Source: Chlamydiales bacterium (lineage in GTDB: Bacteria > Chlamydiota > Chlamydiia > Chlamydiales > JARBTQ01). From it: 64,000 nt of DNA. The translations under genes were made by a program, and so were the position numbers. Within the stretch, counting starts at the first letter, position 1. Each line of letters opens with the position of its first letter. The DNA is taken from the NCBI GenBank assembly GCA_029240075.1, contig JARBTQ010000008.1, positions 2,284 to 66,283 of the forward strand. The letters run 5' to 3'. The notes beneath the pieces were generated by a model that had not been told where the DNA came from, searched no databases, and worked only from the letters and a program-made list of their open reading frames with translations. Shown here piece after piece: positions 8,703-40,619 of the stretch.

Positions 8703-8775
8703 TAGCGGGGGAAGGATTCGAACCTCCGACCTTTGGGTTATGAGCCCAACGAGCTAGCCTCTGCTCCACCCCGCG
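8703..8775 (-). tRNA. tRNA-fMet (initiator, anticodon CAT), copy 1
   Basis: The reverse complement folds as a cloverleaf: CGCGGGG acceptor with a C1xU72 mismatch, anticodon arm TTGGG-CTCATAA-CCCAA with three consecutive G:C pairs (initiator hallmarks), and T-loop TTCGAAT. No encoded CCA. Confidence 0.85.
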
Positions 8776-8821
8776 TTATAAATGACAAATTGAACTGAAA
8801 ATATAAAGAATAAAGAGAAAA

Positions 8822-8895
8822 TAGCGGCAGTCGGACTTGAACCAACGACCCTCGGATTATGATTCCGATGCTCTAACCAACTGAGCTATACCGCC
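8822..8895 (-). tRNA. tRNA with CAT anticodon (elongator Met or lysidine-modified Ile2)
   Basis: Reverse complement GGCGGTA-TA-GCTCAGTTGGTTAGAGC-A-TCGGA-ATCATAA-TCCGA-GGGTC-GTTGG-TTCAAGT-CCGAC-TGCCGCT-A, with a regular 7-bp acceptor. Met versus Ile2 identity cannot be decided by eye. Confidence 0.8.
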
Positions 8896-8904
8896 ATCTG
8901 CAAT

Positions 8905-8977
8905 TAGCGGGGGAAGGACTCGAACCTCCGACCTTTGGGTTATGAGCCCAACGAGCTAGCCTCTGCTCCACCCCGCG
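8905..8977 (-). tRNA. tRNA-fMet (initiator, anticodon CAT), copy 2
   Basis: Identical to copy 1 except for one T-loop base (TTCGAGT versus TTCGAAT). It lies 9 nt upstream, in transcript sense, of the middle CAT tRNA. Confidence 0.85.
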
Positions 8978-13294: not shown

Positions 13295-13461
13295 AAGAAG
13301 TCCATTTTGAGCGTCAGATTTGTATAGAATAAATCGGCTCAGCGATAGGGAAAATAGATGTTAGGATGTAAAATTTTCTAGTCGTCAGATGCAAATTGCC
13401 GCTAGAACATGAAGACCAAATATTTTTTAATGTTATATAGCAAAACAGGGACATAGCTAAG

Positions 13462-16400
13462 ATGCAATACTCTTCACCCACTTGGATCCGATTCATACTT
13501 TCACTAGGCTTATTTACTAGCTGTACCTCCAAAGCTTTGGACGTAAGGAAAAATCGGATTGAAAACCTTCAAAAAGATTTGAACGAATTACATAAAAGAG
13601 ATACCGCTATAGCTCCCGAATATACGTTAGATCAATTGGTTGCTTTAGCCCTAAGTAGAAGTATTGATATTCTTTACCATGAGCAAGAGTACGAGATCCA
13701 AAAAGAGATCGCAACTAAAGCAAAATTAACACAACTGCCCTCCTTGACAGCCAGTTTTGATAGTAGTATGAGATCTCCCCCTATGCGCAGTACGGCAAGT
13801 TCTTTTGCTGCGGACGGAAAGACCCCTATCGAAAAGACAAGCGTTGAATATTCCCAGAGCACCCCAAAAGAAAATCAACAATTTTCCCTAGGTGCAGCTT
13901 GGAATGTGTTAGATTTTGGCTTAACTTATCTTAGAACTAGGCAGGAGCAAAACCAACTTCTAATCTTGCGGCAAAGACAATTAAGGTTAAGACAAAACCT
14001 AATATTAAATGTTACAGAATATTATTGGAAAGCCTCCGTATTCAAATACGCTCTACAAAAATCTACAGAGACTTTAGCTAAGACTAAAGAACTACAAAAA
14101 GCTATTAACAAACAAATACAAGCTAAAACTATTTCTGAAGTGGTGGGATTGCAAATTGAAGATCAAATTCTACAGATGCAAGCTCATGCACACCATTTTA
14201 AAGTCGAATATGAAAAAAACTTAACTGTCCTCATCTCCCACTTACAACTTCCGCCTGGCACAGACCTCAACATTAAAGGATTTGATAAGTTTCCTGAGCT
14301 AAAAGGGAGACTTGATATTGATGTAGCTAATTTAGAAGAGCAGGCTTTACTTAATAGACCTGAGTTATTTGAACAAGATATCAAGCAAGTGATCGATATT
14401 GATGAGACTAAACAATCTCTTTTAAGAATGTTTCCCAATGTCAGCTTATTTGCAGATCTTAATTATAGCAAAAATAAATATCTGCTTCATCATGCTTGGT
14501 TGGATCTAGGCGCGAAAACAGCTTGGAATCTCTTATCCCTTCCTCAACAGCTTCATAATTTCCGTTCCAATAAATTGGGAGAAGACTTAACTAAACAAGC
14601 ACGCCTCTCGCTGTCCATGGGGGTTTTGTCACAATTGCGTTTAGCCTACCTCCTCTATGATGAAGCGATCTCCACATTTGAAATCACACAGCGTTTATTC
14701 CAAGTTAAGCAAAGAAGATTAGCTGCGGCACAGAAGAGCTTTGCTGAAGGGCAAACCTACGAAATGGAAATTATTGAATTACAGGCGGAAACTCTCTTTG
14801 CCGAAATCAATAGCCTTAATAATTTTGCTGAAGCACAAATTGGGTTAGAGAAAATAGCCAATACAGTTGGTATTCCCATGCTCTTTAGTGATATCAATGT
14901 GAGCAAAATTGCTGAACGCTTGAGTTACGGTAAGCCTACTCCAGTTCTGCTTACTAATACTTGGTTGCAATGGGAAAATCCTAAACAAAACTTTAAAAAA
15001 TACCCTAAAAATAAAATATTTTCACGCCAAAGAAATGCGCTTAATTACGAAAATCATATGCGTGGAGTTGTAAGTCAAGAGATTCAGGAGCACTCTAAAA
15101 TCACCCCATTTAATCAACAATTTGACTCTAAAGAGATCTCTTTTTTCCAAGCAAAACCTGCTGATGGCAACGTTATAGATAAAGAGGATGAACAAACGCC
15201 CCCTAATGAAACTCAGAACCAAATTGACTCTAATATCGATTGTAATACTGGAGCAGAAACTTCATGTGAAAATACTGCAATAGCTAAGGCTGAGCCTCAA
15301 ATTACTGGTAATGTTATTGGAGCTATTTTTGCAGAAAACTCACCCACGACAGAACTCAATTTACAAATTCCTCTCTCTGAAGCAATAAATCAGGAGCAAA
15401 ATGATCTCATTGAAAATGAAAAAGAAATCACTAATTCTGTTTTATACGAACATCTAGTAATTATTGAACCACAGGAAGAGTCAAACCAACTTATAGATAT
15501 AGTTGAGGCAAAGGATTGCTGCGAAGATGAAAAACAAGTACCTAGTAAGAAGCCCGAGGGAAGTGGTCAACCAACAGCAATTGAAGCTAGTGTCAATGAG
15601 ACCATGATAGTAGAAGTTGCATTAGTAGATGTAATTAGTCCTATGAACGACAACGTCACTGATTTAACAGACCTATTAACGCAAGCTGTAGAAGAAGAAA
15701 AACAAGAAGATCTACCCATTCAGACTTCTGTAGAGAACGCAACTCTTTTTATAGAGGCAGAACCTATTGCCTATACTCCGGTTGACAACTCTTTACCTAG
15801 CTTAAATCAATCAACTACCATTCATAATAATGAATCTTCAACATCTCAAAGTCATTTTTCTCCTACAGAATCTTTAAAAGAGGTTGAACAAACTGTTGAA
15901 ATTGATGTTAAAAAGAAAAGTGTTGAAGATCTTCCTTATGATGTAAAAGAACACACACTAGAAGGATTAGATCAATCCACCTCCACTCATTATCCTCTTA
16001 AAATAGATGGATCAGAAACAGATTGGAATGCGGATACCCCTTTTGAGGAAGATTATAAAGAAGATGAAGAATTTAGCTCTTCCAAAGAAACTTCAGCTAT
16101 AGAGTCTGGGGAGGAAACTCAAAGTAAGTCCTATCAATCAGAAGATCAACAGGAAAGTGCACTTTTAGACTTACCAGAATCGATCAAACAAGTTCCTGTC
16201 GAACCACAATTAGTAGAGCAGGAACTTCGTCCGTATATTTTCAATATAGCGGAGCAACCTAATACTAGTAATGAAAACGAAAAAATTGAACAAACCAGAG
16301 AAGACAAAGATCCTCAACTCTCTTATGAATTAGTAGGTGAGGCAACTACTGATACTATAGCTTCTACGGAGGTTGATCTTAAGGAAAGCTATAGAGAAAA

Positions 16401-16623
16401 AGACAGTCCCTGTTTGACTCCCCAAATGGCAGCCACTGTCGAAGAAAAACAAGAACCCTCAGCTCTTAAAACAATCGAACTTGGGGCTAATACTGAAGAC
16501 AGCGTTGAACTACCAGAAGAACACCAAATTGAAATTGAAGTGCTGGAAGATCAAGCTAGTGAAAATGCTACAGAAAGTCAAAAAGATTATAATTCTAAGG
16601 CTATCCATGAAACAAATGCATAA
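13462..16623 (+). CDS. TolC-like outer membrane factor lipoprotein fused to a ~570-aa acidic low-complexity C-terminal extension
   Basis: 1053 aa. Lipobox LFTSC (Cys21). The OEP-like halves begin YTLDQLVALALSRSIDIL and ANLEEQALLNRPELF and end near ...EKIANTVGIPMLF (about nt 14890). The remainder is E/Q/T/S/D/N-rich and non-repetitive. Confidence 0.6.
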   Translation: MQYSSPTWIRFILSLGLFTSCTSKALDVRKNRIENLQKDLNELHKRDTAIAPEYTLDQLVALALSRSIDILYHEQEYEIQKEIATKAKLTQLPSLTASFDSSMRSPPMRSTASSFAADGKTPIEKTSVEYSQSTPKENQQFSLGAAWNVLDFGLTYLRTRQEQNQLLILRQRQLRLRQNLILNVTEYYWKASVFKYALQKSTETLAKTKELQKAINKQIQAKTISEVVGLQIEDQILQMQAHAHHFKVEYEKNLTVLISHLQLPPGTDLNIKGFDKFPELKGRLDIDVANLEEQALLNRPELFEQDIKQVIDIDETKQSLLRMFPNVSLFADLNYSKNKYLLHHAWLDLGAKTAWNLLSLPQQLHNFRSNKLGEDLTKQARLSLSMGVLSQLRLAYLLYDEAISTFEITQRLFQVKQRRLAAAQKSFAEGQTYEMEIIELQAETLFAEINSLNNFAEAQIGLEKIANTVGIPMLFSDINVSKIAERLSYGKPTPVLLTNTWLQWENPKQNFKKYPKNKIFSRQRNALNYENHMRGVVSQEIQEHSKITPFNQQFDSKEISFFQAKPADGNVIDKEDEQTPPNETQNQIDSNIDCNTGAETSCENTAIAKAEPQITGNVIGAIFAENSPTTELNLQIPLSEAINQEQNDLIENEKEITNSVLYEHLVIIEPQEESNQLIDIVEAKDCCEDEKQVPSKKPEGSGQPTAIEASVNETMIVEVALVDVISPMNDNVTDLTDLLTQAVEEEKQEDLPIQTSVENATLFIEAEPIAYTPVDNSLPSLNQSTTIHNNESSTSQSHFSPTESLKEVEQTVEIDVKKKSVEDLPYDVKEHTLEGLDQSTSTHYPLKIDGSETDWNADTPFEEDYKEDEEFSSSKETSAIESGEETQSKSYQSEDQQESALLDLPESIKQVPVEPQLVEQELRPYIFNIAEQPNTSNENEKIEQTREDKDPQLSYELVGEATTDTIASTEVDLKESYREKDSPCLTPQMAATVEEKQEPSALKTIELGANTEDSVELPEEHQIEIEVLEDQASENATESQKDYNSKAIHETNA

Positions 16624-16657
16624 AGATCAGCTTTACAAATTTTCAGGTGATGAAAGG

Positions 16658-17566
16658 ATGCAAATGGAGTATTTTCATCCTTTTCACCGGGCAGGATTTT
16701 TACAAATCTCATTTTGGCAAGATTTATTAAATTTCAAATTGTCAAAAGTTTATAGATTTTTACTCAACATAGGACTACCCGTTGTACCTTTAGCCCTCTT
16801 GTGCTACATGACCCCTTGCATTGCCCTAGAAAATACTATACCTTCTAGTCCTGTTGCATCGTTGATTGAAAAACCCGCTAAAGAACACTCTTTTCGAGTG
16901 GTCTTAACACCACTGCATACAACAACAGTTCGTACAAAAGTACCTTCTAAAGTAGTTTATATTCATAAACAGATGGGAGAAAGCTTTGAAAAAGATGAGG
17001 TACTTGTTCAACTGGAAGACACTTTGTTTATTGCAGAAAAGAATAGAGCTCAAGCCATATTTGAAAAATTTAAATCAGTTTTAAATGCAAAACAAGAGCT
17101 TTACCGCTCTAGTATTGCGTCTCTTTCTGACCTGAAAGAAGCTGAAGCTTCTCTAGTCTCCTCTGAAAGAGATCTTATAGCTGCTATGGATGCCCTAGAT
17201 AGCTGCAAATTTAAAGCTCCTTATATAGGTTCTATATCTGCAGTCCATATTAAAGAATTTGAATTAGTACAACCAGGCGACCCAATTGTCGAATTAGTGG
17301 ATGATCATATTCTCTTAGCTAAATTTCTTCTTCCTTCTCACTATTTCAATCAGGTCAAGAAAGGGCAAAAGATCGAAATTAGTGTACAAGAAACTTTTAC
17401 TAAAGAGATTGGTACAGTGACTCAAATAGATGCTGTTATTGATCCTGCTAGCTCTGTCTTTAGAGTGTATGCCGAAATTGATAATTCTGATAAGCATCTC
17501 ATGTCTGGCATGAGAGCAGATATTATACTTAAGCCAGCCCCTTCTAACCTAGCGTCATCGCGTTAA
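16658..17566 (+). CDS. HlyD-family periplasmic adaptor (membrane fusion protein), short form
   Basis: One N-terminal TM (FLLNIGLPVVPLALLCYMTPCIAL). Lipoyl-like hairpin halves VRTKVPSKVVYIHKQMGESFEKDEVLVQLED and FKAPYIGSISAVHIKEFELVQPGDPIVELVDD, followed by a beta-barrel segment. The track ORF start at 16481 overlaps the upstream gene. The ATG at 16658/16664 (AGGA upstream) is more plausible. Confidence 0.6.
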   Translation: MQMEYFHPFHRAGFLQISFWQDLLNFKLSKVYRFLLNIGLPVVPLALLCYMTPCIALENTIPSSPVASLIEKPAKEHSFRVVLTPLHTTTVRTKVPSKVVYIHKQMGESFEKDEVLVQLEDTLFIAEKNRAQAIFEKFKSVLNAKQELYRSSIASLSDLKEAEASLVSSERDLIAAMDALDSCKFKAPYIGSISAVHIKEFELVQPGDPIVELVDDHILLAKFLLPSHYFNQVKKGQKIEISVQETFTKEIGTVTQIDAVIDPASSVFRVYAEIDNSDKHLMSGMRADIILKPAPSNLASSR

Positions 17567-17581
17567 ATTTATGAGAGCTTT

Positions 17582-18928
17582 ATGATTACGGCAAATTCAG
17601 ATAAGGTCTCTGCAGTTCAACTATTAGCAATTATCAATCAACTCAGTTTGCAAGCATACCGTTCGCAATCTCTAGAAGCGTTAATATTTCAAATTGTTAA
17701 TGATACATACCATGCGATTAGTTATAACCGCGCTATGCTTTGGAAATATGAGGATAAGCAATTCGTTCTTTTAGGAATTTCTGGCCAAACACAAATTAGT
17801 AAAAAAAGCCCTTTAATTGATCAAACTCAGCTTTTAATGAGTCATCTTAAAGAGTTAGAAAAACCACAAATTTTGTCTAAGGACTCTTTTAAAGAACAGG
17901 TGCATACTATATGGCATAAGCTTTCAGCAGATTCCCTACAACCAGAGATTTGTTGGTTTCCCATTATTCAAGACAAGCAGCTTATAGGAGGCCTCTGGCT
18001 AGAACGGTGGCATAAAGAAGAGTGGTTGAACTACGAATTAGAAATGCTAGGCTTTATTACTGCAGCCTATGCAGCTGCTTGGGATAAGTACAGAAATAAA
18101 TTTAACTGGAAGAAAGTCTTTCGTTTCTGGGGTTTCTATTTAGGCATAATGTTACTCGGATCTTTTATAATTCATGTCCCTTTGCGCATAGTAGCTCCAT
18201 GCGAGGTAGTTTCCAAAGACCCAGTTGCAATTAGCGCGACTTTGGATGGAACTATTGCTCAACTTGAAGTGAAGCCAGGACAATTGGTTAAAAAAGGTGA
18301 CCTACTTTATAGCTACAATCCAGAAATTCCTCTTCAAAATTTAAAATCCTTTCGCAAACAGGTAGAGGTTAGCCAAGCAGAGCTTGATCGTGCAGTCTCT
18401 TTAGCTTTTACTCACAATCGAGGTCTAGCTGAAATCGAAGAACTTTCACTACGCTTGAGAAAAGAAAAGATCGCTTTAGAAACTGCTGAATATCAAGCTA
18501 AGCATTTGCAAGGATTTGCCCCTAAAGATGGTATTGTTATGTTGGATGACCCTGAAAAATGGCGCGGTAGTCCTGTGACTATTGGGGAAAAGATTCTTCA
18601 AATTGCAGACCCATCTGAGACTAAAGTACGTATGTGGATACCTGAGAGCGATAATATCGTACTTAACCAAAATAAGCCTATCAAAGTTTTTTTAAATGTA
18701 AGCCCTAATCGTAGCTTTACAGCTCAATTAAAATACATTGCCAGCTATACCCATGTAAATGATAAGGGAATGCCTTGCTTTACCTCCGAAGCAAATTGGA
18801 TCGAAGAAGAGGAAAATTTAAAATTAGGACTTAAAGGAAGCGCTATCCTATATGGGGAAGATGTCTCCCTTTTTTACTGGCTTGTACGCCGCCCTTGGAC
18901 AGCACTGCGCAACTTCATAGGATTTTAA
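17582..18928 (+). CDS. HlyD-family adaptor with an N-terminal cytoplasmic GAF-like domain
   Basis: 448 aa. Residues 1-175 are soluble and GAF-like (NRAMLWKYEDKQFVLLGISG ... KQLIGGLWLERW). TM segment VFRFWGFYLGIMLLGSFIIHVPL. The HlyD signature follows: ISATLDGTIAQLEVKPGQLVKKGDLLYSY, a coiled coil, then FAPKDGIVML. Confidence 0.6.
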   Translation: MITANSDKVSAVQLLAIINQLSLQAYRSQSLEALIFQIVNDTYHAISYNRAMLWKYEDKQFVLLGISGQTQISKKSPLIDQTQLLMSHLKELEKPQILSKDSFKEQVHTIWHKLSADSLQPEICWFPIIQDKQLIGGLWLERWHKEEWLNYELEMLGFITAAYAAAWDKYRNKFNWKKVFRFWGFYLGIMLLGSFIIHVPLRIVAPCEVVSKDPVAISATLDGTIAQLEVKPGQLVKKGDLLYSYNPEIPLQNLKSFRKQVEVSQAELDRAVSLAFTHNRGLAEIEELSLRLRKEKIALETAEYQAKHLQGFAPKDGIVMLDDPEKWRGSPVTIGEKILQIADPSETKVRMWIPESDNIVLNQNKPIKVFLNVSPNRSFTAQLKYIASYTHVNDKGMPCFTSEANWIEEEENLKLGLKGSAILYGEDVSLFYWLVRRPWTALRNFIGF

Positions 18929-20626: not shown

Positions 20627-20877
20627 ACAAAAAAGTTTAACAGAAGCTACAAAGGCCAGCCTAATAATCCTTATTAGGCTTCTAGAATGCTCTAATCTAT
20701 CTAATTTTATAAAAAATAAAATGTTCTATTGTCTCAAATTACACTTAAATTATTCTATTGCTTTAATAAAATCGTTTTAATATGATTTAAGGGTTCATAT
20801 ATTCTTGAATTACTTCTTAAAATATAAAAATTTAATCTTTAAAAAAATAACCTTCATAAACTCCTTTAGGAATTAAT

Positions 20878-31139: not shown

Positions 31140-32777
31140 CTATTTAGAACGTAATGATAAAGTTTTTTTAAGGATCAAATTGCTTATCTCATAACTTGCT
31201 GTTTCTAAAATTTCATATAAAGAACAAAATCCTTTTTTCTTATAATCGAGACATTCAAACAAGCAGCTCTGAATATAGGTTTGATCTAACAGCACTTTTA
31301 GGACTTCCTTGTGCCCTAATTGGGCAGCTTCCACAAGCAATCTATTTTTATTCTGGAAAAAAAGATCTGTTGTTGGCGGACTATAACTTAAAATATAGTC
31401 TCCCTGTGCAACCTCTAAAATTTTCTTTAGTATTTTAGGTTGGTTATTTGTACAGGCTAGATAGGCTAGAGAACGCATGATTTCAAATTTTGAACTTGAA
31501 TCATATTTTGCTGCTAATAGTGTAACTTCTAGTAAAGAAATTAATTCTTCAAATTTTTCAATATCCCCTTTTATAACTAAACTATTAAATCTAGCTTCTA
31601 GCATCTTGTATAAATTTATTCTATCTCTATTATAGTTTTGAGGTATGGATTTTAGAGTTGCTTTGATTGCAGGGTCATCCAATAGATCCTTTATACGTTT
31701 TGAATCACCCGAATGAAAAGCTAGAGTTAAAGGATAGTACGGAACAACCCTAGTAGAATTATTGCTCCATTGAAATCCAGTAGTTGTATCAAATTTTAGC
31801 TTGTTAAGTAATTCTATATTTTCTAAATCCTGTGCAGAAGGTACTGTCTTTAATTTTTTAAGGATTAAATCGCTTATCTCATAACTTGCTGTGTCTAAAA
31901 CTTCATGTAAAGAATCAAACATTTTCTTCTTAGGGTCTAGGCATTGCAATAGACAATTTTGGATATAAGTTTGATCTAATAGTAATTCTATAATTTCCTT
32001 ATGCCCTAGTTGAGCAGCTTCCACAAATAACCTAATATGACTAGGAGGGCACAATTCCACAGAATCGTGGTTCGTTGGAGGAGTGTAAGTTAAAACATAT
32101 TCCCCGCTTGCAACTTTTAAAATTTCTTGCAACATTTCAGGCTGATTATTTCTACAGGCTAGATGAGTCAACGACTTCATGATTTTATAATAGGCTGCAT
32201 GGTTGTGCTCATTCGCTGCTGTTAGCGTAGGTTTTAGTAAAGGAATTAAATTTTTAAATGTTTCAATATCCTCTTCTATAACTAAACTATTAAATCTAGC
32301 TTCTAGCATATTACATAAGTTTTTCCTTCTGTCATTGGAGCCAAGGGGCAAAGAATCAAGAGCCTCCTTGATCTCAGGCTTATCCAAGACAGTTTTTATA
32401 AGCTTTGAGTTTTTTGAATGAAAGGCTTGGATTAAAAGATAGTAGGGAGGCATCTTATAATTAACATTTTGAATCCATTCAAATGTCGTTGTTGCACTAA
32501 AACCTTTTACACTCAGTAGTAAATCTACATTTCTTAAATTTCCTTGTGATGCATATTTAGCTAAGTCTAAAGCAGCTTGCTCCCCCTTGCTTGCTTTAAC
32601 AATATTACCTATTGCAAGTTGTGCTATTCTATTAAATAACTTGTTTACTTGTGCGTGCAAAGCTAAATCTCCAAGCTTCATTAAACTCATTATTTTTACT
32701 TGTATATCTTGTGGTAACTTTTCAAATTTAAAATATTCTGGAGCAAAGCTTTCAATTTTACTATTATTCACGTTCAT
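31140..32777 (-). CDS. F-box-like protein built from two ~230-aa tandem repeats
   Basis: 545 aa. N-terminal EKLPQDIQVKIMSLMKLGDLALHAQVNKLFNRIAQ fits the F-box consensus, including the LP start. Residues ~85-310 and ~321-540 are collinear paralogous halves. Confidence 0.7.
   Translation of the reverse strand: MNVNNSKIESFAPEYFKFEKLPQDIQVKIMSLMKLGDLALHAQVNKLFNRIAQLAIGNIVKASKGEQAALDLAKYASQGNLRNVDLLLSVKGFSATTTFEWIQNVNYKMPPYYLLIQAFHSKNSKLIKTVLDKPEIKEALDSLPLGSNDRRKNLCNMLEARFNSLVIEEDIETFKNLIPLLKPTLTAANEHNHAAYYKIMKSLTHLACRNNQPEMLQEILKVASGEYVLTYTPPTNHDSVELCPPSHIRLFVEAAQLGHKEIIELLLDQTYIQNCLLQCLDPKKKMFDSLHEVLDTASYEISDLILKKLKTVPSAQDLENIELLNKLKFDTTTGFQWSNNSTRVVPYYPLTLAFHSGDSKRIKDLLDDPAIKATLKSIPQNYNRDRINLYKMLEARFNSLVIKGDIEKFEELISLLEVTLLAAKYDSSSKFEIMRSLAYLACTNNQPKILKKILEVAQGDYILSYSPPTTDLFFQNKNRLLVEAAQLGHKEVLKVLLDQTYIQSCLFECLDYKKKGFCSLYEILETASYEISNLILKKTLSLRSK
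31158..32525 (-). repeat. intragenic tandem duplication, period about 690-705 bp
   Basis: It is visible at DNA level: TTTTTAAGGATCAAATTGCTTATCTCATAACTTGCTGTTTCTAAAATTTCAT near 31165 versus TTTTTAAGGATTAAATCGCTTATCTCATAACTTGCTGTGTCTAAAACTTCAT near 31855. At protein level: EARFNSLVI, VEAAQLGHKE, LLDQTYIQ.CL and TASYEIS.LILKK occur in both halves. Confidence 0.85.
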
Positions 32778-33155
32778 AAAAAAACCTTAAAAAAAATTTC
32801 TATATATAAAATTTAACAAAAATAAATGTAAAAATATACGAATATAATAAAATTAATCAAAATACATGGAAGGAGCTTTTCAATCATTAAGATAAAATGA
32901 ACTTTCATATAGCACATGCGATTGGGGAGGTTAGCTCATGTTATCAAGATTTAGCTTGGATTGATGAAGTTGTGCACTCAACTGAAGCTGACTGCAATAG
33001 CCTCAAATTTTATTGCAATGTGAGCTTTGATTGCATATAATACTTACGCTTGCTAGTTACTTTACTAAAAAAAATATTTCCAAATATTTCGCAAATGAGC
33101 TAAATAGTCGGAAAATTTAAGAGTCAACCCTATAACCCGATTGTGTAGTAAAATT

Positions 33156-33623
33156 ATGACCCTCAAGAGTGAACGCCTAAAAAAATTAGAAGGAGAGCTA
33201 AACGATTTGGCCCAGTGGCTTAAGCTCAACCTTGTTCCTAAAAAAGAGATTGAAAAGCATAAAGCTGAGATGCAAAATTTAGAGGAAAAAATTGAGGAGG
33301 AAAAAAATCGATTACGAGCTCTCAAAGAGAGTGGCGAAGTTGAAGAATTCATTGCTCCTCGACGCAATATGGCTAAAAATGCTTATGCTGAAGCTCCGAC
33401 TATGGCTGATATAGACTTGGTTGAAGAAAGTGGTTTTACAGATATTTCAATGGACGCAGAACAAGATACTGTAGGTCTGACAACCTCTGCTGTAGAAGAT
33501 GATGATGACGATCGAGAAGAAAAAGAAGATCGTACGCGTTATGATGATGAAGATGATGATCCTTTTAGTGACCGCAATCGCTGGCGCCGTGGAATCAAAG
33601 ATCCAGATGATGATGAGTGGTAA
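33156..33623 (+). CDS. hypothetical coiled-coil protein with strongly acidic C-terminus
   Basis: MTLKSERLKKLEGELNDLAQWLK... is a coiled-coil N-terminal half. The C-terminal half is D/E-rich (EDDDDDREEKEDRTRYDDEDDDPFSDRNRWRRGIKDPDDDEW). The track start is at 33141. The 3' end overlaps the hemW start. Confidence 0.55.
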   Translation: MTLKSERLKKLEGELNDLAQWLKLNLVPKKEIEKHKAEMQNLEEKIEEEKNRLRALKESGEVEEFIAPRRNMAKNAYAEAPTMADIDLVEESGFTDISMDAEQDTVGLTTSAVEDDDDDREEKEDRTRYDDEDDDPFSDRNRWRRGIKDPDDDEW

Positions 33624-34770
33624 GAATTCCCCTGCAGAAGAGATCAGTCTGTATGTTCATGTTCCCTTCTGCAATCGCAAGTGTGATTATTGCCATTTTT
33701 ATGTACTACCCAATCAGGAAAGATATAAAGACATTTTGCTTAAAGGGCTTGAATTAGAGATTGAGAGGGTCAAGCCCAATGTCAACAACCAAACCTGTGT
33801 TTCTATTTACTTTGGTGGTGGAACTCCTTCATTATTTGGTCCAAACCGTGTTCAACAAGTCCTTAAACTAATTAAAAATACAGGTATTATTTTTTCTCCT
33901 CAGATCGAGGTTACCTTAGAAGCTAATCCTGATGAATTTAGTCCTGAACTTGCTTTTGAATATGCAGCCGCCGGCATTAATCGCCTAAGTATCGGAGTCC
34001 AATCATTTAACAATCAACTTTTACCTTTGTTATCACGACAGCATAGTGCAGAGCAAGCAATCAAAGCTGTACAATATGGAATACAAGCGGGGATCTCTAA
34101 TATCTCGATTGATTTAATGTATGACCTCCCACACCAAACCTTAATGCAATGGCAAGAATCTCTTGAAATTGCAGCTTCTCTCCCGATTACTCACCTGTCA
34201 CTTTATAATCTAACCATTGAGCCCCATACTGTTTTTTTTAAGAAACAAGATCTCATCCGCAAACAACTGCCAGAAGAAAAAGTTAGTACAACAATGTACC
34301 AAAGAGCAATTGAAGTTTTTGCAGCTCATGGACTACAGCAATATGAGATTTCAGCTTTTGCGCGTAATCAGCATATTTCTAAGCATAATATTGGCTATTG
34401 GACAGGTCGTAATTTTTGGGGATTAGGTCCTTCAGCGTTTAGTTATTGGCAGGGAAAGAGGTTCCGTAATGTAGCCAATCTCTACCGCTATCAACAATCT
34501 TTGGCTGCTGGAGTTTCTCCTATTGACTTTGAAGAAAAGCTACCTCCTGAAGAGAGCCTAAAAGAGCTTCTTGTGATTCAACTACGCTTGATGGAGGGAG
34601 TTCATTTAAAAAAATTTCAAGCTAAATACGGCTTACTGCCATCTGAGACACAAATTACTATTCAGAAACTTATAGAAACTGACTTCCTTCATTACCCATC
34701 ACCTCTTCAACTCTGCTTAACGACAAAAGGACGCCTTTTTTACGATAGTGTTGCCTCTGAGCTCATTTAA
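33607..34770 (+). CDS. hemW: radical SAM heme chaperone HemW / HemN-like protein
   Basis: LYVHVPFCNRKCDYCHFY (CxxxCxxC), GGGTPS and the HemN C-terminal domain. About 387 aa from the ATG triplet at 33607-33615. The longer track ORF from 33499 is an out-of-frame read through the upstream gene. Confidence 0.85.
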   Translation: MMMSGKNSPAEEISLYVHVPFCNRKCDYCHFYVLPNQERYKDILLKGLELEIERVKPNVNNQTCVSIYFGGGTPSLFGPNRVQQVLKLIKNTGIIFSPQIEVTLEANPDEFSPELAFEYAAAGINRLSIGVQSFNNQLLPLLSRQHSAEQAIKAVQYGIQAGISNISIDLMYDLPHQTLMQWQESLEIAASLPITHLSLYNLTIEPHTVFFKKQDLIRKQLPEEKVSTTMYQRAIEVFAAHGLQQYEISAFARNQHISKHNIGYWTGRNFWGLGPSAFSYWQGKRFRNVANLYRYQQSLAAGVSPIDFEEKLPPEESLKELLVIQLRLMEGVHLKKFQAKYGLLPSETQITIQKLIETDFLHYPSPLQLCLTTKGRLFYDSVASELI

Positions 34771-34796: not shown

Positions 34797-36674
34797 CTAA
34801 GAGTGAGTAACTTTAGGTGGATTAGGAAAAGTGATTGTAAAGCAGGAGCCTTTCTGGAACTCGCTACTTACAGTTAATTCCAAGTTAAGGAGGATACACA
34901 ATTGCTTTGAAATGTAAAGGCCTAAACCTGTTCCTGAGTGTCTACGATTGTATTTTTTATCAACTTGGTAAAACTTATCAAATAGCTTAGGTAATTTATC
35001 CTCTTTAATTCCTATTCCTGTATCTAAGATCTGAATAGATAAAGGGCGATCTGTACTCTCATCCCAAACTAATTCTATCTTCACGTAGCCTTCATCCGTG
35101 AATTTTATAGCATTACCTAAAAGATTAATTATAACCTGTTTCAGCTTGAACAAATCTGTCATATAGCGAAACTTTTTCGGTGGAATTATATAACTTAAAC
35201 TGAGGCTTTTTTCTAGTGCTTGGCCTCCTATCTCTTGTACTGTATCTAATATAAGCTGATTTAAACAAACCTGGCTAATTTCTAAGTGAGAGCTTCCATT
35301 TTCTATTTTGGAAATATCTAAGATACTTTCTATAAGCTTTAATAAATGCATTGAATTTTTAGTGATTCGTTCTAGATATAATGAGCATATTTTGCTATTG
35401 CTCATCTCAGGCTGCTCTGCAAGCAAGTTAGCAAAACCTATAATAGAATTCAGTGGTGTTCTTAGTTCATGACTAACATTAGCAATAAAATGGCTTTTCG
35501 CTTCACAAGCTTCCAAAGCTGCTTTTTGAGAATACAGCAATTCCTCATTAACTAATCTTTGCTTATGAATATCAATGATAATAGCAAAAACTTTTTCACT
35601 TCCAATTACCTGTCCTGGTGGTAAAGCTATTCTCCATAACAACCAGCGATAAGTTCCATCTTTACATAGAAAACGGTTTTCTATATCCATCACTTTTTGC
35701 GTTGTTACTACAGCTTGCCATGCTATTAATGTTGCCTGGTAATCATCTGGATGAACTAGGCTAAGGATCGTATGCTCTTTTAAATCATCTATCGAGTATC
35801 CTAAGATTTCACTGAATGCTGCATTAGTCTGCAAGAAACGAGCTTTTGTACTAGATATGACAAGAATTTGAGTAGAGCAGTTCCACAAGTAATCTAACTT
35901 TCGCTGTACTTGTTTTGATCGCGTAACATCGGTCAATATAACATAGATATCAGAGAGGGGGTTAGTATGATCAATTTTAGCACAAGAGGCCTCCATCTCT
36001 CTAATCATCCCACTTCTTTCTCTGATAAATATAATTTGATTATAAAGATATCCTTGCTGATTGAACTTAGAAAAGCGTTGCTCGTACTCCTCAATACTTA
36101 TACCTAACAATAGATTAAAGATATCAACCCCAATCACTTCTGCTCGGCTATATCCAAAAGCTTGTTCCCAAAGGTTATTGACATTTAAAATAATCCCTCT
36201 ATGGTCAACTACATGGGATATTGTTGGATTATTTTCATAAATAAGGCGGTAAAGGTGTTCTTTATCTTTCAAAGCTTTCGTTTGTTCTACAACTTTTGCA
36301 AACAATTCGACTAAGGTAACATCGTTTTGGGTAAATTCTGGGACCTGAGGATCCATAGAAACAAATCCCAGTACATATAGCTTATTTCCTAGAGTAGATA
36401 TGGGAGTACAGATTCCTCTTCTGACTTTTATAACATGATTCGCAGGCTTATAATGGCATTCAAAATTATATTCAATATAGGTCCTATTTTGTACAACCAT
36501 ATGGTACGCCATAGTTTCTACAAAAGGAGTTTTATATCCTGGGTTCACTTGGGGGTAAACTTCTGAATAATAATCTTCTAATAAAAAAGATTCTTCATCT
36601 TGACACCCTATATAAGCTGTGTCTGTCTTCAATAAACTACAGCCGAATTTTAGAATATCTGTTGTACTGTACAT
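34797..36674 (-). CDS. cytoplasmic sensor histidine kinase (GAF-like, 2x PAS, HisKA, HATPase_c), paralog 1
   Basis: 625 aa, no TM segment. H-box HFIANVSHELRTPLNSIIGF, N-box LLGNAIKFT, G1 ILDTGIGI, G2 GTGLGLYISKQL. PAS-like segments at ~140-250 and ~260-370. Confidence 0.85.
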   Translation of the reverse strand: MYSTTDILKFGCSLLKTDTAYIGCQDEESFLLEDYYSEVYPQVNPGYKTPFVETMAYHMVVQNRTYIEYNFECHYKPANHVIKVRRGICTPISTLGNKLYVLGFVSMDPQVPEFTQNDVTLVELFAKVVEQTKALKDKEHLYRLIYENNPTISHVVDHRGIILNVNNLWEQAFGYSRAEVIGVDIFNLLLGISIEEYEQRFSKFNQQGYLYNQIIFIRERSGMIREMEASCAKIDHTNPLSDIYVILTDVTRSKQVQRKLDYLWNCSTQILVISSTKARFLQTNAAFSEILGYSIDDLKEHTILSLVHPDDYQATLIAWQAVVTTQKVMDIENRFLCKDGTYRWLLWRIALPPGQVIGSEKVFAIIIDIHKQRLVNEELLYSQKAALEACEAKSHFIANVSHELRTPLNSIIGFANLLAEQPEMSNSKICSLYLERITKNSMHLLKLIESILDISKIENGSSHLEISQVCLNQLILDTVQEIGGQALEKSLSLSYIIPPKKFRYMTDLFKLKQVIINLLGNAIKFTDEGYVKIELVWDESTDRPLSIQILDTGIGIKEDKLPKLFDKFYQVDKKYNRRHSGTGLGLYISKQLCILLNLELTVSSEFQKGSCFTITFPNPPKVTHS

Positions 36675-36757
36675 TAGAACTTTTAGATAACTCCTTATTA
36701 ATTACTTTAAAACCGCCCCTACAAAAAGGTTTATACGGTAAGTTTATTACTAAAATT

Positions 36758-38635
36758 TCATGTGTAAATAATTTTAGGCTGCTTAGGAAAAAAGATGCTA
36801 AAGCAGGAACCTTTTGCAAATTGACTAGAAACAGATAATTCTAAACCCAATGCAACAGATAGCTGTTTAGAAATATATAACCCTAAACCTGTCCCTGAGT
36901 GCTTGCGACTGTATCCTTTACCAACTTGATAAAATTTATTAAATAATTTAGGTAGCTCATCTTCCTTGATGCCTATACCTGTGTCTGTAACCTGAATTGA
37001 TAATGAACGAGACAGATTGGGATTCCAGATAAGCTCTACGGTTATAGTCCCTTCTTCAGTAAATTTAATAGCATTAGCTAGTAAATTTATAAGGATCTGC
37101 TTAAGTTTGAATAAATCTGTTTGGTAAAAAAAATTTTCTTTAGGAATTAATGCTTTAATTTCTAATTTTTTTTCCAATGCCTGTCCAGTTATTTCGCTAA
37201 CAGTTTCCGCAATTAACTGATTCAAACAAATAGAATTTATTTCTAATCCTGAATCTCCACTTTCAATTTTAGAAATATCTAAAATACTTTCTATAAGTTT
37301 TAGTAGATGAGTTGAATTTTGATGAATACGCTCTAGATATAATGAGCATGGGATACTATTTCTTAGCTCTGGCTCTTCGGCTAATAAATTACTAAAGCCT
37401 ATAATGGAATTTAAAGGGGTTCTTAATTCATGGCTTACGCTTGTAATAAAATGGCTTTTAGCTTCAGAAGCTTCTAATGCAGCTTGTCTTGAGCAAAGCA
37501 ATTCTTCATTAATAAGTCTTTGCCTATGAATGTCAATAACAATGGCAAAAATTCTTTCATTACCTACAGGTTGCTCGAAAGGGGATGAAATACGCCAAAG
37601 CAACCAGCGGTAAGTACCGTCCTTACATAGACAACGAACTTCTATATCAATGACCCCTTGCTTAGTTACAACGTTATTCCAAGCTGCAAAAGTATGATCA
37701 TAGTGCTCTTGATGTACCAAATCAAAAACAGTAAGTTCTTTTAAGTCTTCTAGTGTATAACCTAAAATTTGGCTAAATGCTGAGTTCACTTGAATAAAAG
37801 AAGCTTCCTGATTAGAAATTACAAAGATTTCATTAGAACAGCTCCATAAGTAATCTAGCTTCCTTTGCGCTTGATTTGAATCTGTTATGTCTGTGAGGGT
37901 TACATAGATATCAGAATGTTCATTAGTAGGGTCAACGCGAATGCTAAATGACTCCATCTCTTGAATTTCACCCGTTTTTCTCCTAATATTTATCACGTTA
38001 TTGTAAAGATAACCCTGTTTGTTAAATTCAGAAAATCTGCGGTTAAATTCTTGCCGACTCATAGAGCAGATGAAATCGAAAATATCTTTTCCTATGACTT
38101 CATCTCGATTGTACCCGAACCATTCCTCCCAAAGGTTACTAATATTTAAAACAATTCCTTCATAATCTACTACATATGACATTGAAGGATTATGCTCATA
38201 AATTAAACGGTATAAGAGTTCTCTATCTTTCAGTAATAAAGTTTGCTCAATAATTTTCGCTAACAATTCTACAATTGCTATATCACTATCTGTAAATTCG
38301 GGAGCAGCTGAATTTGTAGATAGAAAAACTAAACCTCGTATTGATTTATCCGCTATAATAATAGGTGTACAAATATAGCGCCTAATCTTCATGGGGGGGT
38401 GGTTAGTGGAACTGTAGTCATATTCAAAATCATACCGGATTTTGGTCATTTTTTGAGAAGCTATCTGATAAGTTACAGATTTATTTAGAGGGACCTTCAT
38501 CTCGGTAATTTCAAAAGGATGTGTAGTATAAATGTATTGTACTACTGAAAAGTCTTCAATTTTCTCCGCTATATAACCTATATCAGCTTGCAAAATATTA
38601 CAGCCAAATTCCAGCATATTTTGAATATTATGCAC
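36758..38635 (-). CDS. cytoplasmic sensor histidine kinase (GAF-like, 2x PAS, HisKA, HATPase_c), paralog 2
   Basis: 625 aa and collinear with paralog 1, with motifs at identical residue numbers. H-box HFITSVSHELRTPLNSIIGF, N-box LLANAIKFT, G2 GTGLGLYISKQL. Confidence 0.85.
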   Translation of the reverse strand: MHNIQNMLEFGCNILQADIGYIAEKIEDFSVVQYIYTTHPFEITEMKVPLNKSVTYQIASQKMTKIRYDFEYDYSSTNHPPMKIRRYICTPIIIADKSIRGLVFLSTNSAAPEFTDSDIAIVELLAKIIEQTLLLKDRELLYRLIYEHNPSMSYVVDYEGIVLNISNLWEEWFGYNRDEVIGKDIFDFICSMSRQEFNRRFSEFNKQGYLYNNVINIRRKTGEIQEMESFSIRVDPTNEHSDIYVTLTDITDSNQAQRKLDYLWSCSNEIFVISNQEASFIQVNSAFSQILGYTLEDLKELTVFDLVHQEHYDHTFAAWNNVVTKQGVIDIEVRCLCKDGTYRWLLWRISSPFEQPVGNERIFAIVIDIHRQRLINEELLCSRQAALEASEAKSHFITSVSHELRTPLNSIIGFSNLLAEEPELRNSIPCSLYLERIHQNSTHLLKLIESILDISKIESGDSGLEINSICLNQLIAETVSEITGQALEKKLEIKALIPKENFFYQTDLFKLKQILINLLANAIKFTEEGTITVELIWNPNLSRSLSIQVTDTGIGIKEDELPKLFNKFYQVGKGYSRKHSGTGLGLYISKQLSVALGLELSVSSQFAKGSCFSIFFPKQPKIIYT

Positions 38636-39008
38636 AGCTACCTACTCTATCTATCCAATGGGCAATCGTAGTTCTAAATGATTTAAAATCAATGATTGGC
38701 TTAGCTATATAATCATCGAACCCCTGCTGAAGATAGTAATCCCTATGTTCTTTCATAGCATGAGCTGTAGAGGCTATAATAGGCATAGTATAATTTGGAT
38801 TTTCTTTAATTCTACGTAAGATCTCAATCCCATCCAGTAAAGGTAGAGAAATATCCAACAAAATAAGGTCGGGGAGGTTGACTCCTATCCCTTGTAAACC
38901 ATCAATTCCATTGACATATTCATGGACTTCATACATGGGAGATAAAATAGCTGTTAACAAAAGTCGGTTGTCTCGATTATCCTCTATAATTGCAATTTTC
39001 TTTTTCAT
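38628..39008 (-). CDS. single-domain response regulator (CheY-like receiver)
   Basis: 126 aa. Acidic pair IIEDN, phospho-acceptor LILLDISLP, T in IASTAH, K in YIAKP. No output domain. It overlaps the start of the downstream kinase by 8 nt. Confidence 0.9.
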   Translation of the reverse strand: MKKKIAIIEDNRDNRLLLTAILSPMYEVHEYVNGIDGLQGIGVNLPDLILLDISLPLLDGIEILRRIKENPNYTMPIIASTAHAMKEHRDYYLQQGFDDYIAKPIIDFKSFRTTIAHWIDRVGSCA

Positions 39009-39020
39009 AAATATAAAGCT

Positions 39021-40619
39021 CTACTTTCGGTCATAATGACAAGTTAATCTTAATTTTTGGGCCATCAATTTATTTACTTTGCAAAATAATTTAGAGGCAA
39101 CGCTGCTACTATAAACTACAGCATCACAACCATGGTTCAGCAGCATTATTTCTAAATCTTCTTGACCCTCATCTATTAAAGTTATAAGAGCTAAATCATT
39201 AAAAGAGGGGTCACTTCTAATAACTTTAATGACATCCACAACGTTAATACCTAATAAAGAATTTTCTAAAATAAGCAAACTTACAGGTTGATCTTTGATC
39301 TCTTGTATCAAAAGATCTGCATCAGTAATTGATTTGAAATGGTAAGAAGTACCATTAAATACAGAAGCTACAAGGTTGCATCGGGAGGCATTATTGTAGA
39401 GATATAAAATCATAGAATCAAAGGTGTAAAAAGCATGACAATACTTTTCAAAAATGGAAATAATATTTGTATAACTTGTGGTAGGGGAAAAATAAAATGT
39501 AAAATCATTCTGAACCGCAGACAATCGATCCTCTAAAGTATCTTCTGTAATAAGTCCTATCAACGGTGGGTATAGATTGTGTGAAATTTTTTGAGTTAAA
39601 GATTTTAATTGTTCTTGTTGTACAGAAAATCCCTCTCTTTTTTTCTGAATCAATATGCATACTTTTGTCAAATCTGTAATCTGATGCGATAAGTTATTAT
39701 CATTTATATTGAATAATGGAATACGTTCAACTGAGCACAATTGCTCGATTTGACTAGAGAGGGTTTTGTCTACAATATCATAAATCAAAATAAAATCTGC
39801 TTCAGATGCTTTGGATTGTTTCTTTTGAGCGTAACTTAAAGCTAATTTTTTAAATATATGGTTGTAATTTGGATTGTATGAAATGTCATTAAAGCATAGT
39901 CGCATCTCTACAAGAAACTGTTTCAAAACCTCTTTATTAAGATTACAAATCTTATATTTGATCAGTGGTTCTATTGTATTTTCAAAGCTATTACATAGAT
40001 TTGTGACATTCATATAACCATAAGAACCTGCTGAACCTGCGAATTGGTGTGCTAGGTCCCTAAGTGCGATTAAATTCTCGAGGGAAGGTTCATCAATAAA
40101 TGTATCAATGCATGTATATAAAAATTCTAACTTAGAAGGAATAGAATTATCGTAGCATGCTTTGACTTTTTTTAGACTTTGCCCTACTAAATAGGGGCTT
40201 TCAATACTTGAATTTGAAAAATGATCTTTTAAAATTGAACTAAATGTCTCTCGACTCAAAGGTTTAGGATAAGATTTAACTGCCAATTCCTTTAGGATAC
40301 TCAGAGACTTAATATCAAAAGAGGAGGTAAAAATAATAGGCGTTGTAGATTTTTTAGTTTTTTTTTGTCCCGAAATAAAATCTGTTCCAGTTCCATCTGG
40401 GAGCAATTGATCTACAATAATCAAATCGTACTGCTGCTTTTGCAACTTCTCTTCTGCGCTCTTTAACGTATTTGCATGATCCAAAAAAACTGATTGTGAC
40501 TGACATATTTCCCTTAGATAATTGAAAAGTGCATAGTCATCGTCAATTAAAAGGGCTGCTTGCATCCGTTTAGAAGCTTTCTTCACTGATAGCGCCATTT
40601 TGATCCTTGTGCTTATCAA
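39021..40619 (-). CDS. REC - HPt - pseudo-receiver phosphorelay protein
   Basis: 532 aa. The N-terminal receiver has LLIDDD, DLIIVDQLLPDGTG, IIFTSS and YPKP. The HPt-like motif is LAHQFAGSAGSYGY (H..kGsag..G). In the C-terminal receiver-like fold, LLILENSL replaces the acceptor Asp. Confidence 0.7.
   Translation of the reverse strand: MISTRIKMALSVKKASKRMQAALLIDDDYALFNYLREICQSQSVFLDHANTLKSAEEKLQKQQYDLIIVDQLLPDGTGTDFISGQKKTKKSTTPIIFTSSFDIKSLSILKELAVKSYPKPLSRETFSSILKDHFSNSSIESPYLVGQSLKKVKACYDNSIPSKLEFLYTCIDTFIDEPSLENLIALRDLAHQFAGSAGSYGYMNVTNLCNSFENTIEPLIKYKICNLNKEVLKQFLVEMRLCFNDISYNPNYNHIFKKLALSYAQKKQSKASEADFILIYDIVDKTLSSQIEQLCSVERIPLFNINDNNLSHQITDLTKVCILIQKKREGFSVQQEQLKSLTQKISHNLYPPLIGLITEDTLEDRLSAVQNDFTFYFSPTTSYTNIISIFEKYCHAFYTFDSMILYLYNNASRCNLVASVFNGTSYHFKSITDADLLIQEIKDQPVSLLILENSLLGINVVDVIKVIRSDPSFNDLALITLIDEGQEDLEIMLLNHGCDAVVYSSSVASKLFCKVNKLMAQKLRLTCHYDRK

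Follow-up and report, generated by a model that had tools for sequence, protein, structure and literature searches.

The 64,000-nt stretch of DNA analyzed here (the window), part of a contig from an environmental Chlamydiales metagenome-assembled genome (MAG), carries a four-gene operon, g1-g4, at positions 34797-40619 of the minus strand. This operon is a real relay system without an output domain; rather than a unique invention, it represents a truncated version of a more widespread protein family. The balance of evidence tilts modestly toward the four genes encoding a working cytoplasmic multi-step phosphorelay, in which phosphoryl groups would flow from the histidine kinases g3 and g4 to the receiver g2, then to His184 of g1, and finally to Asp63 of g1 and/or an unlinked regulator.

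Four tightly packed genes encode the components of a phosphorelay

The whole window is contained in a 99.7 kb contig of a second assembly (JGI 3300042923, Ga0456365_0000417), and we inspected the window together with ~19 kb of flanks from the same contig (~9-10 kb beyond each end). The four-gene sequences are present in this JGI assembly and in Logan assembly SRR35179801, and the g1 protein is identical to an NCBI entry (P0001) labeled "MAG: Chlamydiales bacterium." The operon consists of four intact, co-oriented open reading frames (ORFs) in the order g1-g2-g3-g4:

39021-40598, minus strand: g1, 525 amino acids (aa), REC1-HPt-REC2-REC3, the last two being pseudo-receivers; the ORF is open from TTG 40619
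38628-39008, minus strand: g2, stand-alone receiver of 126 aa
36758-38635, minus strand: g3, soluble histidine kinase of 625 aa
34797-36674, minus strand: g4, paralogue of g3 with the same architecture

A 12-nt gap separates g1 from g2, g2 and g3 overlap by 8 nt, and 83 nt lie between g3 and g4, exactly the packing described in a first-pass annotation made from the sequence alone. That annotation had also proposed that the parts of a relay are here split across separate proteins devoid of DNA-binding, enzymatic, or chemotaxis domains, and Pfam and NCBIfam indeed detect no such effector domain in g1-g4. An output regulator next door would have made the system a conventional one; none adjoins the operon, whose flanking genes are of the housekeeping type (HemW downstream, in convergent orientation, and upstream a methyltransferase and an ArfB-like RF-1 protein). 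Across all ORFs of the window, family profiles found no further REC, histidine kinase, or HPt gene; profiles were used for this search in place of single-sequence phmmer, which was too insensitive inside the window (g2 missed REC1). Scans for promoters and terminators performed at chance (35 sites versus 31 in shuffled sequence, and 7 versus 4.5), and we therefore make no claim about transcript boundaries. Rfam and tRNA scans gave no match within or beside the operon.

The domains and the intact catalytic residues of these proteins are established. The receiver g2, correctly recognized as such in the first-pass annotation, matches Pfam Response_reg at E=1.4e-21 and has a complete active site (E9-D10, D52, T81, Y100, and K103). 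Its top NCBIfam and PDB matches are hybrid-kinase receivers (BarA, HrmK, RcsC, and 12aw) and DivK, not CheY: a hybrid-kinase receiver scored 77 bits in the PDB comparison, DivK followed in second place with 60, and a CheY structure reached 45. CheY family models fell far below their cut-offs, as with CheY_Halo (43 bits against a cut-off of 200). Among the best matches is also PDB 7c1j, a chain named "Histidine kinase" that we provisionally take to be the PA1611 receiver of PMC7467158.

According to Pfam, g3 and g4 each contain two PAS domains, HisKA, and HATPase_c, with E values of 1e-17 to 1e-27 for the latter two. In g3, a GAF-like region (aa 1-135) precedes PAS domains at aa 137-260 and 265-375, HisKA at 392-460 (with His402), and HATPase_c at 509-619. 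Both proteins possess the H (SHELRTP, containing His402), N (NAIKFT), G1 (DTGIGI), F (KFYQV), and G2 (GTGLGL) boxes of histidine kinases, and both keep the H-E-x-x-T motif. No transmembrane-like hydrophobic window of 19 residues occurs in any operon protein, the Kyte-Doolittle maximum of the kinases being 1.34. The kinases had been described as cytoplasmic GAF-PAS-PAS proteins, and this stands for the tandem PAS domains, the HisKA domain, and the lack of a transmembrane segment, but not fully for GAF, for which g3 only marginally clears the Pfam cut-off of 22.4 (with a score of 22.5) and g4 fails to reach it. AlphaFold2 (AF2) models of the N-terminal 140 aa gave a pLDDT of 68, with one confident model of five, and the closest PDB folds are the GAF domains of DosS/DosT and of cyanobacteriochromes, at a TM-score of ~0.5. 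Because the Pfam match is marginal and the AF2 model modest, we label this region GAF-like only.

The two kinases are 59% identical overall (BLASTP), and identity varies by domain, from 36% in the GAF-like region and 59% in each PAS domain to 81% in the dimerization and histidine phosphotransfer (DHp) domain and 65% in the catalytic domain. High conservation of DHp relative to the GAF-like region suggests that the inputs of g3 and g4 have diverged while their partner is shared. Their catalytic cores score highest with the NCBIfam models of TorS, BarA, LuxQ, and ArcB, far below equivalog cut-offs. A homologue search with g3 returned only generic PAS kinases, matching at 28-46% identity over part of the length, none of them with the N-terminal 140 aa.

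The translation of g1 probably starts at ATG 40598, giving the 525-aa product of the public annotation; an exact database look-up of the product from the TTG start found no match, and the public protein begins at ATG 40598. Four domains can be delimited:

40218-40559, minus strand: REC1 (aa 14-127), Pfam Response_reg E=7e-15
39888-40184, minus strand: HPt (aa 139-237), phospho-acceptor His184 in the motif HQFAGSAGSYGY
39423-39794, minus strand: REC2 (aa 269-392), (beta-alpha)5 REC fold in the AF2 model
39042-39416, minus strand: REC3 (aa 395-519), of which aa 404-519 match PhoB receiver positions 5-120

With D19-D20-D21, the acceptor D63, T91, and K112-P113 in place, REC1 looks like an active receiver. 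The HPt domain falls 0.1 bit short of the Pfam Hpt cut-off (24.5 against 24.6 bits). Its assignment is nevertheless secure in three independent ways: an HPt profile of the wider family, built without g1, matches it at 72.6 bits (E=2e-24); AF2 folds it into a bundle of four helices with block-mean pLDDT mostly 80-91; and the HPt domain profile matches the solved structures of CheA P1 and the BarA HPt. Profile searches thus uphold the HPt proposed in the first-pass annotation. That annotation had read g1 as REC-HPt-pseudoREC; the REC and HPt domains are borne out, but two pseudo-receivers follow the HPt domain, not one. REC2 lacks both the acceptor Asp and the Lys, and REC3 has N402-N403 (YN or NN) at the acidic pair and E445 at the acceptor position and is likewise missing the Lys.

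g1 is a truncated member of a mainly chlamydial protein family

A word-indexed homologue search with g1 alone retrieved only g1 itself, and the same search with an alignment of g1 and its relatives (A1) was dominated by generic REC proteins. The family to which g1 belongs was uncovered by exhaustive HMMER searching with residues 128-525 of the 525-aa protein, which matched 253 proteins at E<=1e-3. We examined 152 family sequences, comprising 150 listed matches and two cluster members. Their commonest architecture, found in 40, is REC1-HPt-REC2-REC3-GGDEF-like-REC4 (~800 aa). Variants lack REC1 or the GGDEF-like domain, carry two to four HPt domains, or consist of HPt alone or REC1-HPt alone; one of the Simkaniaceae proteins (MCI5052524.1, P0002; L014:9965-13438) has four tandem HPt domains, in the order REC1-HPt x4-REC2-REC3-GGDEF-like-REC4.

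Across its full length g1 is colinear with this family (REC1, HPt, REC2, and REC3 in alignment A1). D19, D63, and H184 are invariant in the alignment, and a G-x-x-G-x-x-G motif is also common to g1 and the family. Identity across the alignment is 18-25%. No close orthologue of g1 was found among the matches listed; the closest full-length relative among them is P0002 at 27% identity, and a Waddliaceae protein (MEX1013040.1, P0006) is 24% identical over the whole alignment. Against family profiles built without g1, its REC1 scored 50.7 bits, its REC2 a weak 16.9 bits, and its C-terminal domain 38.4 bits as REC3 and 2.1 bits as REC4. We had considered that this last domain might be REC4 brought forward by an internal deletion, and these scores led us to reject that idea. 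No GGDEF or REC4 match was obtained for g1 with Pfam or the family profiles, and the protein ends at residue 525 after REC3.

The AF2 model of g1, computed from a 10-sequence alignment, resolves the four domains at a mean pLDDT of 73.8. Foldseek places PleD chains at the top of its matches, with the tandem receivers of PleD aligned to REC2-REC3 over ~284 columns (E=9e-9); the global TM-score is low because g1 is a multi-domain protein. Pfam, NCBIfam, and the AF2 model reveal no DNA-binding domain in g1, which we therefore did not accept as a DNA-binding regulator; its public names ("response regulator transcription factor" at NCBI and "DNA-binding response regulator" at JGI) are unsupported.

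Family membership, truncation, and degeneration of g1 are in our view established: the protein is colinear over its full length, its C terminus is REC3 and not REC4, this REC3 is dead, and PleD leads the Foldseek matches. By these sequence comparisons, g1 is a divergent, truncated, and fast-evolving member of a mainly-Chlamydiota family, missing the GGDEF-like domain and the last REC. REC3 is live in nearly all relatives (DD, D, and KP), whereas in g1 it is dead. Eighteen of the 152 sequences have an intact GG[DE]EF motif, and from these we conclude that the family ancestor was probably an HPt-containing, PleD-like cyclase. In the subgroup nearest g1, the GGDEF motif has degenerated and Glu occupies the acceptor site of REC4; REC4-type receivers of the relatives carry the signature LDRxLPDM. 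We also considered a PelD-like c-di-GMP receptor role for the relatives' GGDEF-like domain, and inspection of alignment A1 by eye found no RxxD I-site upstream of it.

A scan of GTDB species genomes with a narrow pattern yielded 30 loci, a number that says nothing on absence from cultured chlamydiae. Eighteen carry Chlamydiota labels (Waddliaceae, Parachlamydiaceae, Simkaniaceae, and others), five come from entries labeled "uncultured bacterium," and two from Planctomycetota. The proposal that the operon is stand-alone, lineage-specific machinery has accordingly to give way to membership in this wider family. In the literature on chlamydial HPt, phosphorelay, and GGDEF systems we found no published description of it.

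Relatives of g1 adjoin kinases, receivers, and polysaccharide genes

We examined gene context at 45 non-redundant related loci, counting genes as adjacent at up to 300 nt. A stand-alone REC is present at 32 of these loci and a kinase at 27; the stand-alone REC is adjacent to a kinase gene at 23 of the latter, and to an HPt gene at 22 of all 45. The motif class of g2 is common to the stand-alone receivers that adjoin kinase and HPt genes at these loci, and g1 in the window likewise neighbors kinases and a g2-type stand-alone receiver, directly downstream. Some relatives are fully split, as HK-REC-HPt-REC4 (HK, histidine kinase; L017 and L023) or REC-HPt-REC4 (L040). Compact units without output also occur in other chlamydial MAGs, one with REC1-HPt, HK, and REC (L006) and one with REC1-HPt-REC2 plus HK, REC, and HK (L009). 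Conversely, two fusion proteins of ~1040 aa join HPt-REC-REC, PAS, and kinase modules with a C-terminal receiver in a single chain; this receiver is g2-like in P0275, but scores as REC4-type in the otherwise identically laid out P0274.

At 11-14 related loci, long-form genes are followed by genes for three proteins: a membrane protein with HEAT repeats, a GT2 glycosyltransferase of the processive type, and a tetratricopeptide-repeat (TPR) protein of giant size (up to 1618 aa). Loci of this polysaccharide type (L004, L005, L010, L013-L016, L018-L021, L025, L028, L029, and L031; for example, L005:12776-20133 and L014:13396-14565) often also hold GT4, UDP-glucose dehydrogenase, and epimerase genes. 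The neighborhood has the look of a phosphorelay-controlled exopolysaccharide locus of the synthase type, and we found no published description of such a phosphorelay-linked locus. BLASTP with the relatives' clusters matched no HEAT/GT2/TPR polysaccharide gene among all ORFs of the window.

Proposed order of phosphotransfer and its alternatives

The components of a His-Asp-His-Asp relay are complete in the operon, with g3 and g4 as kinases, g2 and g1 REC1 as receivers, and an HPt domain with its phospho-His, and their residues look competent. From the sequences we infer that g1-g4 exchange phosphate, in what order they do so, and what form the output takes. The kinases g3 and g4 would autophosphorylate on His402, each responding to a different intracellular cue, and would pass the phosphoryl group to Asp52 of g2. 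As an intermediate receiver, comparable to Spo0F or to the detached receiver of a hybrid kinase, g2 would then phosphorylate His184 of the g1 HPt domain. From His184 the group would move on to Asp63 of g1, the only remaining live acceptor of the operon, and/or to an unlinked regulator; REC3 being dead and REC4 absent, no other endpoint would be available. REC2-REC3 may be regarded as a PleD-like tandem receiver stem without its cyclase, most likely serving as a dimerization or partner-binding surface, and readout would occur via protein-protein interaction rather than through an enzymatic or DNA-binding domain.

We favor the order g3/g4 to g2 to His184 because the receivers fused to g3-like hybrid kinases are closer to g2 than to REC1: all 36 of them score higher with g2 than with g1 REC1 (mean 33 versus 1.6 bits). 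The nearest solved or curated relatives of g2, being hybrid-kinase receivers and DivK, argue for the same order, as do the g2-like REC directly behind the kinase in the fusion P0275, the retention of a g2-like REC in relatives without REC1, and the matching gene order of the split operons. Several observations pull the other way. The REC1-HPt order of g1 is that of unorthodox kinases (HK-REC-HPt), which hints at transfer from kinase to REC1, HPt, and then g2; at one related locus (L016) the kinase has REC1-like receivers and the HPt protein has no REC1, an arrangement that fits REC1 acting first; and the HPt profile resembles CheA P1, a donor to CheY-like proteins. The four domains of g1 score 51, 73, 17, and 38 bits on the domain profiles, against ~90-150 in many members, and these low scores could reflect relaxed constraint. 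A terminal regulator may also sit elsewhere in the genome of this uncultured organism, in sequence beyond the window and inspected flanks, and the earlier characterization of the operon as self-contained is more than a single contig can establish.

The first three of these points define a serious rival, if a somewhat unlikely one, in which the REC1-HPt half of g1 is the detached half of an unorthodox kinase, g3 and g4 phosphorylate Asp63, and the group moves via His184 to Asp52 of g2, a terminal CheY/DivK-like regulator acting by target binding. A receiver followed by HPt is the arrangement of ArcB, BarA, and TorS-type kinases, the Thr/Tyr switch set is complete in g2 (T81, Y100, and K103), and DivK is second among its PDB matches. 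The kinship of g2 with kinase-fused receivers, its counterpart's position in P0275, its persistence where REC1 is absent, and the HK-REC-HPt-REC4 arrangement of split operons count against this order. Somewhat likelier than this, though still less probable than not, is that the four genes supply only the input and transfer steps of a conventional relay with its terminal acceptor encoded elsewhere. Such an acceptor could be, for example, a REC4-type receiver, a DNA-binding regulator, or a full-length HPt-REC-REC-GGDEF-like-REC paralogue with an exopolysaccharide locus next to it. In relatives, HPt occurs together with a live REC3, a REC4-type receiver bearing LDRxLPDM, or both, and g1 has lost the two of them; the relatives also often adjoin the HEAT-repeat, GT2, and TPR polysaccharide genes, and our view extends to the window and ~19 kb of a 99.7 kb contig. 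Within that sequence no such acceptor is present, however, and short forms without output recur as compact units in other chlamydial MAGs (L006 and L009).

Two further explanations we regard as improbable. Since g2 has the size of CheY and an intact switch, it might be a chemotaxis-type CheY steering a flagellar motor, with the operon as an alternative motility input; the contig carries a pair of flagellin genes ~7.4 kb past the end of the window, and flagella and chemotaxis are known in some environmental chlamydiae (PMC5604735). Yet no che or fli genes adjoin the operon and no che genes occur in the window or inspected flanks, g2 prefers hybrid-kinase receivers and DivK to CheY in both structure and family-model comparisons, and g2-type receivers accompany HPt and kinase genes at many chlamydial loci. 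It is about equally doubtful that the operon is a decaying remnant that no longer signals, with g1 truncated and degenerating. The final two family domains are missing from g1, its REC3 retains no active-site residue, every one of its domains falls far below other members on the family profiles, and its best relatives are distant. Set against this, the four ORFs are intact, tightly spaced, and recurrent in the JGI and Logan assemblies, and the catalytic motifs of g3, g4, g2, REC1, and HPt are all preserved; moreover, the DHp domains of the kinases have remained 81% identical despite 36% identity in the sensor region, which indicates selection. Pseudo-receivers are, besides, regular functional modules, an example being the adaptor domain of PleD.

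A more specific idea is that the relay ends in a pseudo-receiver scaffold: the two cytosolic kinases would sense intracellular or host-derived cues, and the phosphorylation state of REC1 and HPt would change what the dead tandem receiver stem binds. We hold this to be rather unlikely. If true, it would describe a post-translational switch in an obligate intracellular, possibly flagellated chlamydia, for example in control of developmental stage or surface polysaccharide, and a mainly-Chlamydiota HPt relay family that has repeatedly lost or inactivated its cyclase output.

Source organism and genomic surroundings

The GC content of the operon (0.32-0.37) is unremarkable in a window that lies at 0.32-0.41 throughout, and we dropped horizontal acquisition as an explanation for its presence. 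A CT_584-like protein and several ankyrin-repeat proteins in the window are consistent with an environmental chlamydia. Ankyrin-repeat proteins of environmental chlamydiae are commonly seen as effector-like, and one of the three large ones, which lie within 12 kb, is 2 kb from the operon. Other features of the window and flanks are:

8703-8977, minus strand: three tRNA genes in tandem, each with a CAT anticodon
10918-11259, minus strand: PTS HPr-family protein, 93 aa as called
13441-18925, plus strand: unusually long OEP-domain outer-membrane protein (1060-aa ORF), then two HlyD-type membrane-fusion proteins
20860-22722, plus strand: large ankyrin-repeat protein
25945-28155, plus strand: large ankyrin-repeat protein
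31143-32786, minus strand: large ankyrin-repeat protein
33141-33623, plus strand: highly acidic 160-aa ORF that overlaps the longest HemW ORF (33499-34770, plus strand) at its 5' end
L054:1-6187, same contig, directly before window position 1: Fil_haemagg_2 protein with a faint OTU match, at least 3002 aa long
L054:7308-9875, same contig, before window position 1: 855-aa protein with a eukaryote-type RasGEF domain
L055:400-2013, minus strand, same contig, in the stretch ~7.4-9.4 kb past window position 64000: flagellin, 537 aa, Flagellin_N and Flagellin_C
L055:1-291, same contig and same ~7.4-9.4 kb stretch: second tandem flagellin copy, incomplete, Flagellin_N

The tRNA trio presumably comprises an initiator, an elongator Met, and possibly a lysidine-modified Ile tRNA. 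The HPr protein is a separate His-phosphocarrier and is unrelated to HPt of g1. The scanned stretch around the OEP and HlyD genes (13441-18925) yielded no gene for an inner-membrane pump. HemW starts later in gene callers than in the longest ORF (409 or 387 aa), and the true starts there are uncertain. The Fil_haemagg_2/OTU and RasGEF proteins are candidate host-interaction effectors. Judging from the flagellin pair, this Chlamydiales MAG would seem to come from a flagellated lineage, of the kind reported for marine chlamydiae (PMC5604735). With an environmental MAG of this kind as the source, the contrast that the first-pass annotation drew with pathogenic Chlamydiaceae is beside the point.

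Significance and comparison with known systems

Chlamydiae are usually portrayed as near-devoid of histidine-kinase and c-di-GMP signaling (PMC4989314), and in a 2015 census HPt domains were found in 1.85% of chlamydial genomes and REC-HPt proteins were rare (312 in 264 genomes; PMC4558063). The operon described here links a complete multi-step relay to a modular HPt family in MAGs labeled Waddliaceae, Parachlamydiaceae, Simkaniaceae, and other Chlamydiota; a polysaccharide locus of the synthase type lies beside many of its members, and the cyclase domain is degenerate in most. If functional, the family would be a candidate route for coupling intracellular cues to surface or developmental changes in environmental chlamydiae. 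The operon with truncated g1 may be viewed as a natural experiment in how a relay behaves after loss of its output domain. With an uncultured organism as its source, the operon is of limited practical use, although its proteins are soluble and well suited to in vitro phosphotransfer assays. Compared with the long forms of its own family, g1 has no GGDEF-like domain, no REC4, a dead REC3, and no HEAT/GT2/TPR locus nearby.

One parallel to the proposed flow is the Spo0 relay of Bacillus (KinA-E, Spo0F, Spo0B, and Spo0A), in which several soluble PAS kinases feed a single-domain receiver, a His phosphotransferase, and a second Asp, with all components on separate proteins. The two differ in that Spo0B, instead of being an HPt four-helix bundle, is a dimer resembling DHp, and in that Spo0A has a DNA-binding end, an effector of which the operon has no equivalent. 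ArcB, BarA/GacS, and TorS share the REC-HPt order of g1, the BarA receiver is the best match to g2, and the operon would also work much like a kinase of this unorthodox type taken apart into separate proteins. Unlike these membrane-anchored kinases, which hold HK-REC-HPt in one chain, the operon distributes the modules over three proteins and its kinases are soluble; NCBIfam scores far below equivalog cut-offs indicate that its proteins are not orthologues of the unorthodox kinases. PleD of Caulobacter (REC-REC-GGDEF) has a stem of two receivers in tandem, one live and the other an adaptor, and this stem is the best structural match to REC2-REC3 of g1, but in g1 the GGDEF domain is missing, both stem receivers are pseudo-receivers, and the stem comes after an additional REC and an HPt domain.

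The HptB network of Pseudomonas aeruginosa (PA1611 and others to HptB to HsbR) also moves phosphoryl groups through HPt from receivers of the hybrid-kinase type. There, HptB is a free HPt protein, and HsbR has a PP2C and anti-sigma-antagonist output to which nothing in the operon is comparable. The "four-component" operon RedCDEF of Myxococcus xanthus encodes four two-component proteins, none with an output domain (PMC2755868), and resembles g1-g4 in combining a multi-receiver protein with a stand-alone receiver. It differs in that its His relay is the kinase-like RedE rather than an HPt domain and in that RedC is membrane-bound, and the sequence relation is at the domain level only. Within the same phylum, Chlamydia CtcB/CtcC and ChxR draw on the same domain superfamily as the operon, but are a one-step NtrB/NtrC-type system and an atypical OmpR-type regulator, respectively, with DNA-binding or AAA+ outputs and no HPt (PMC4989314).

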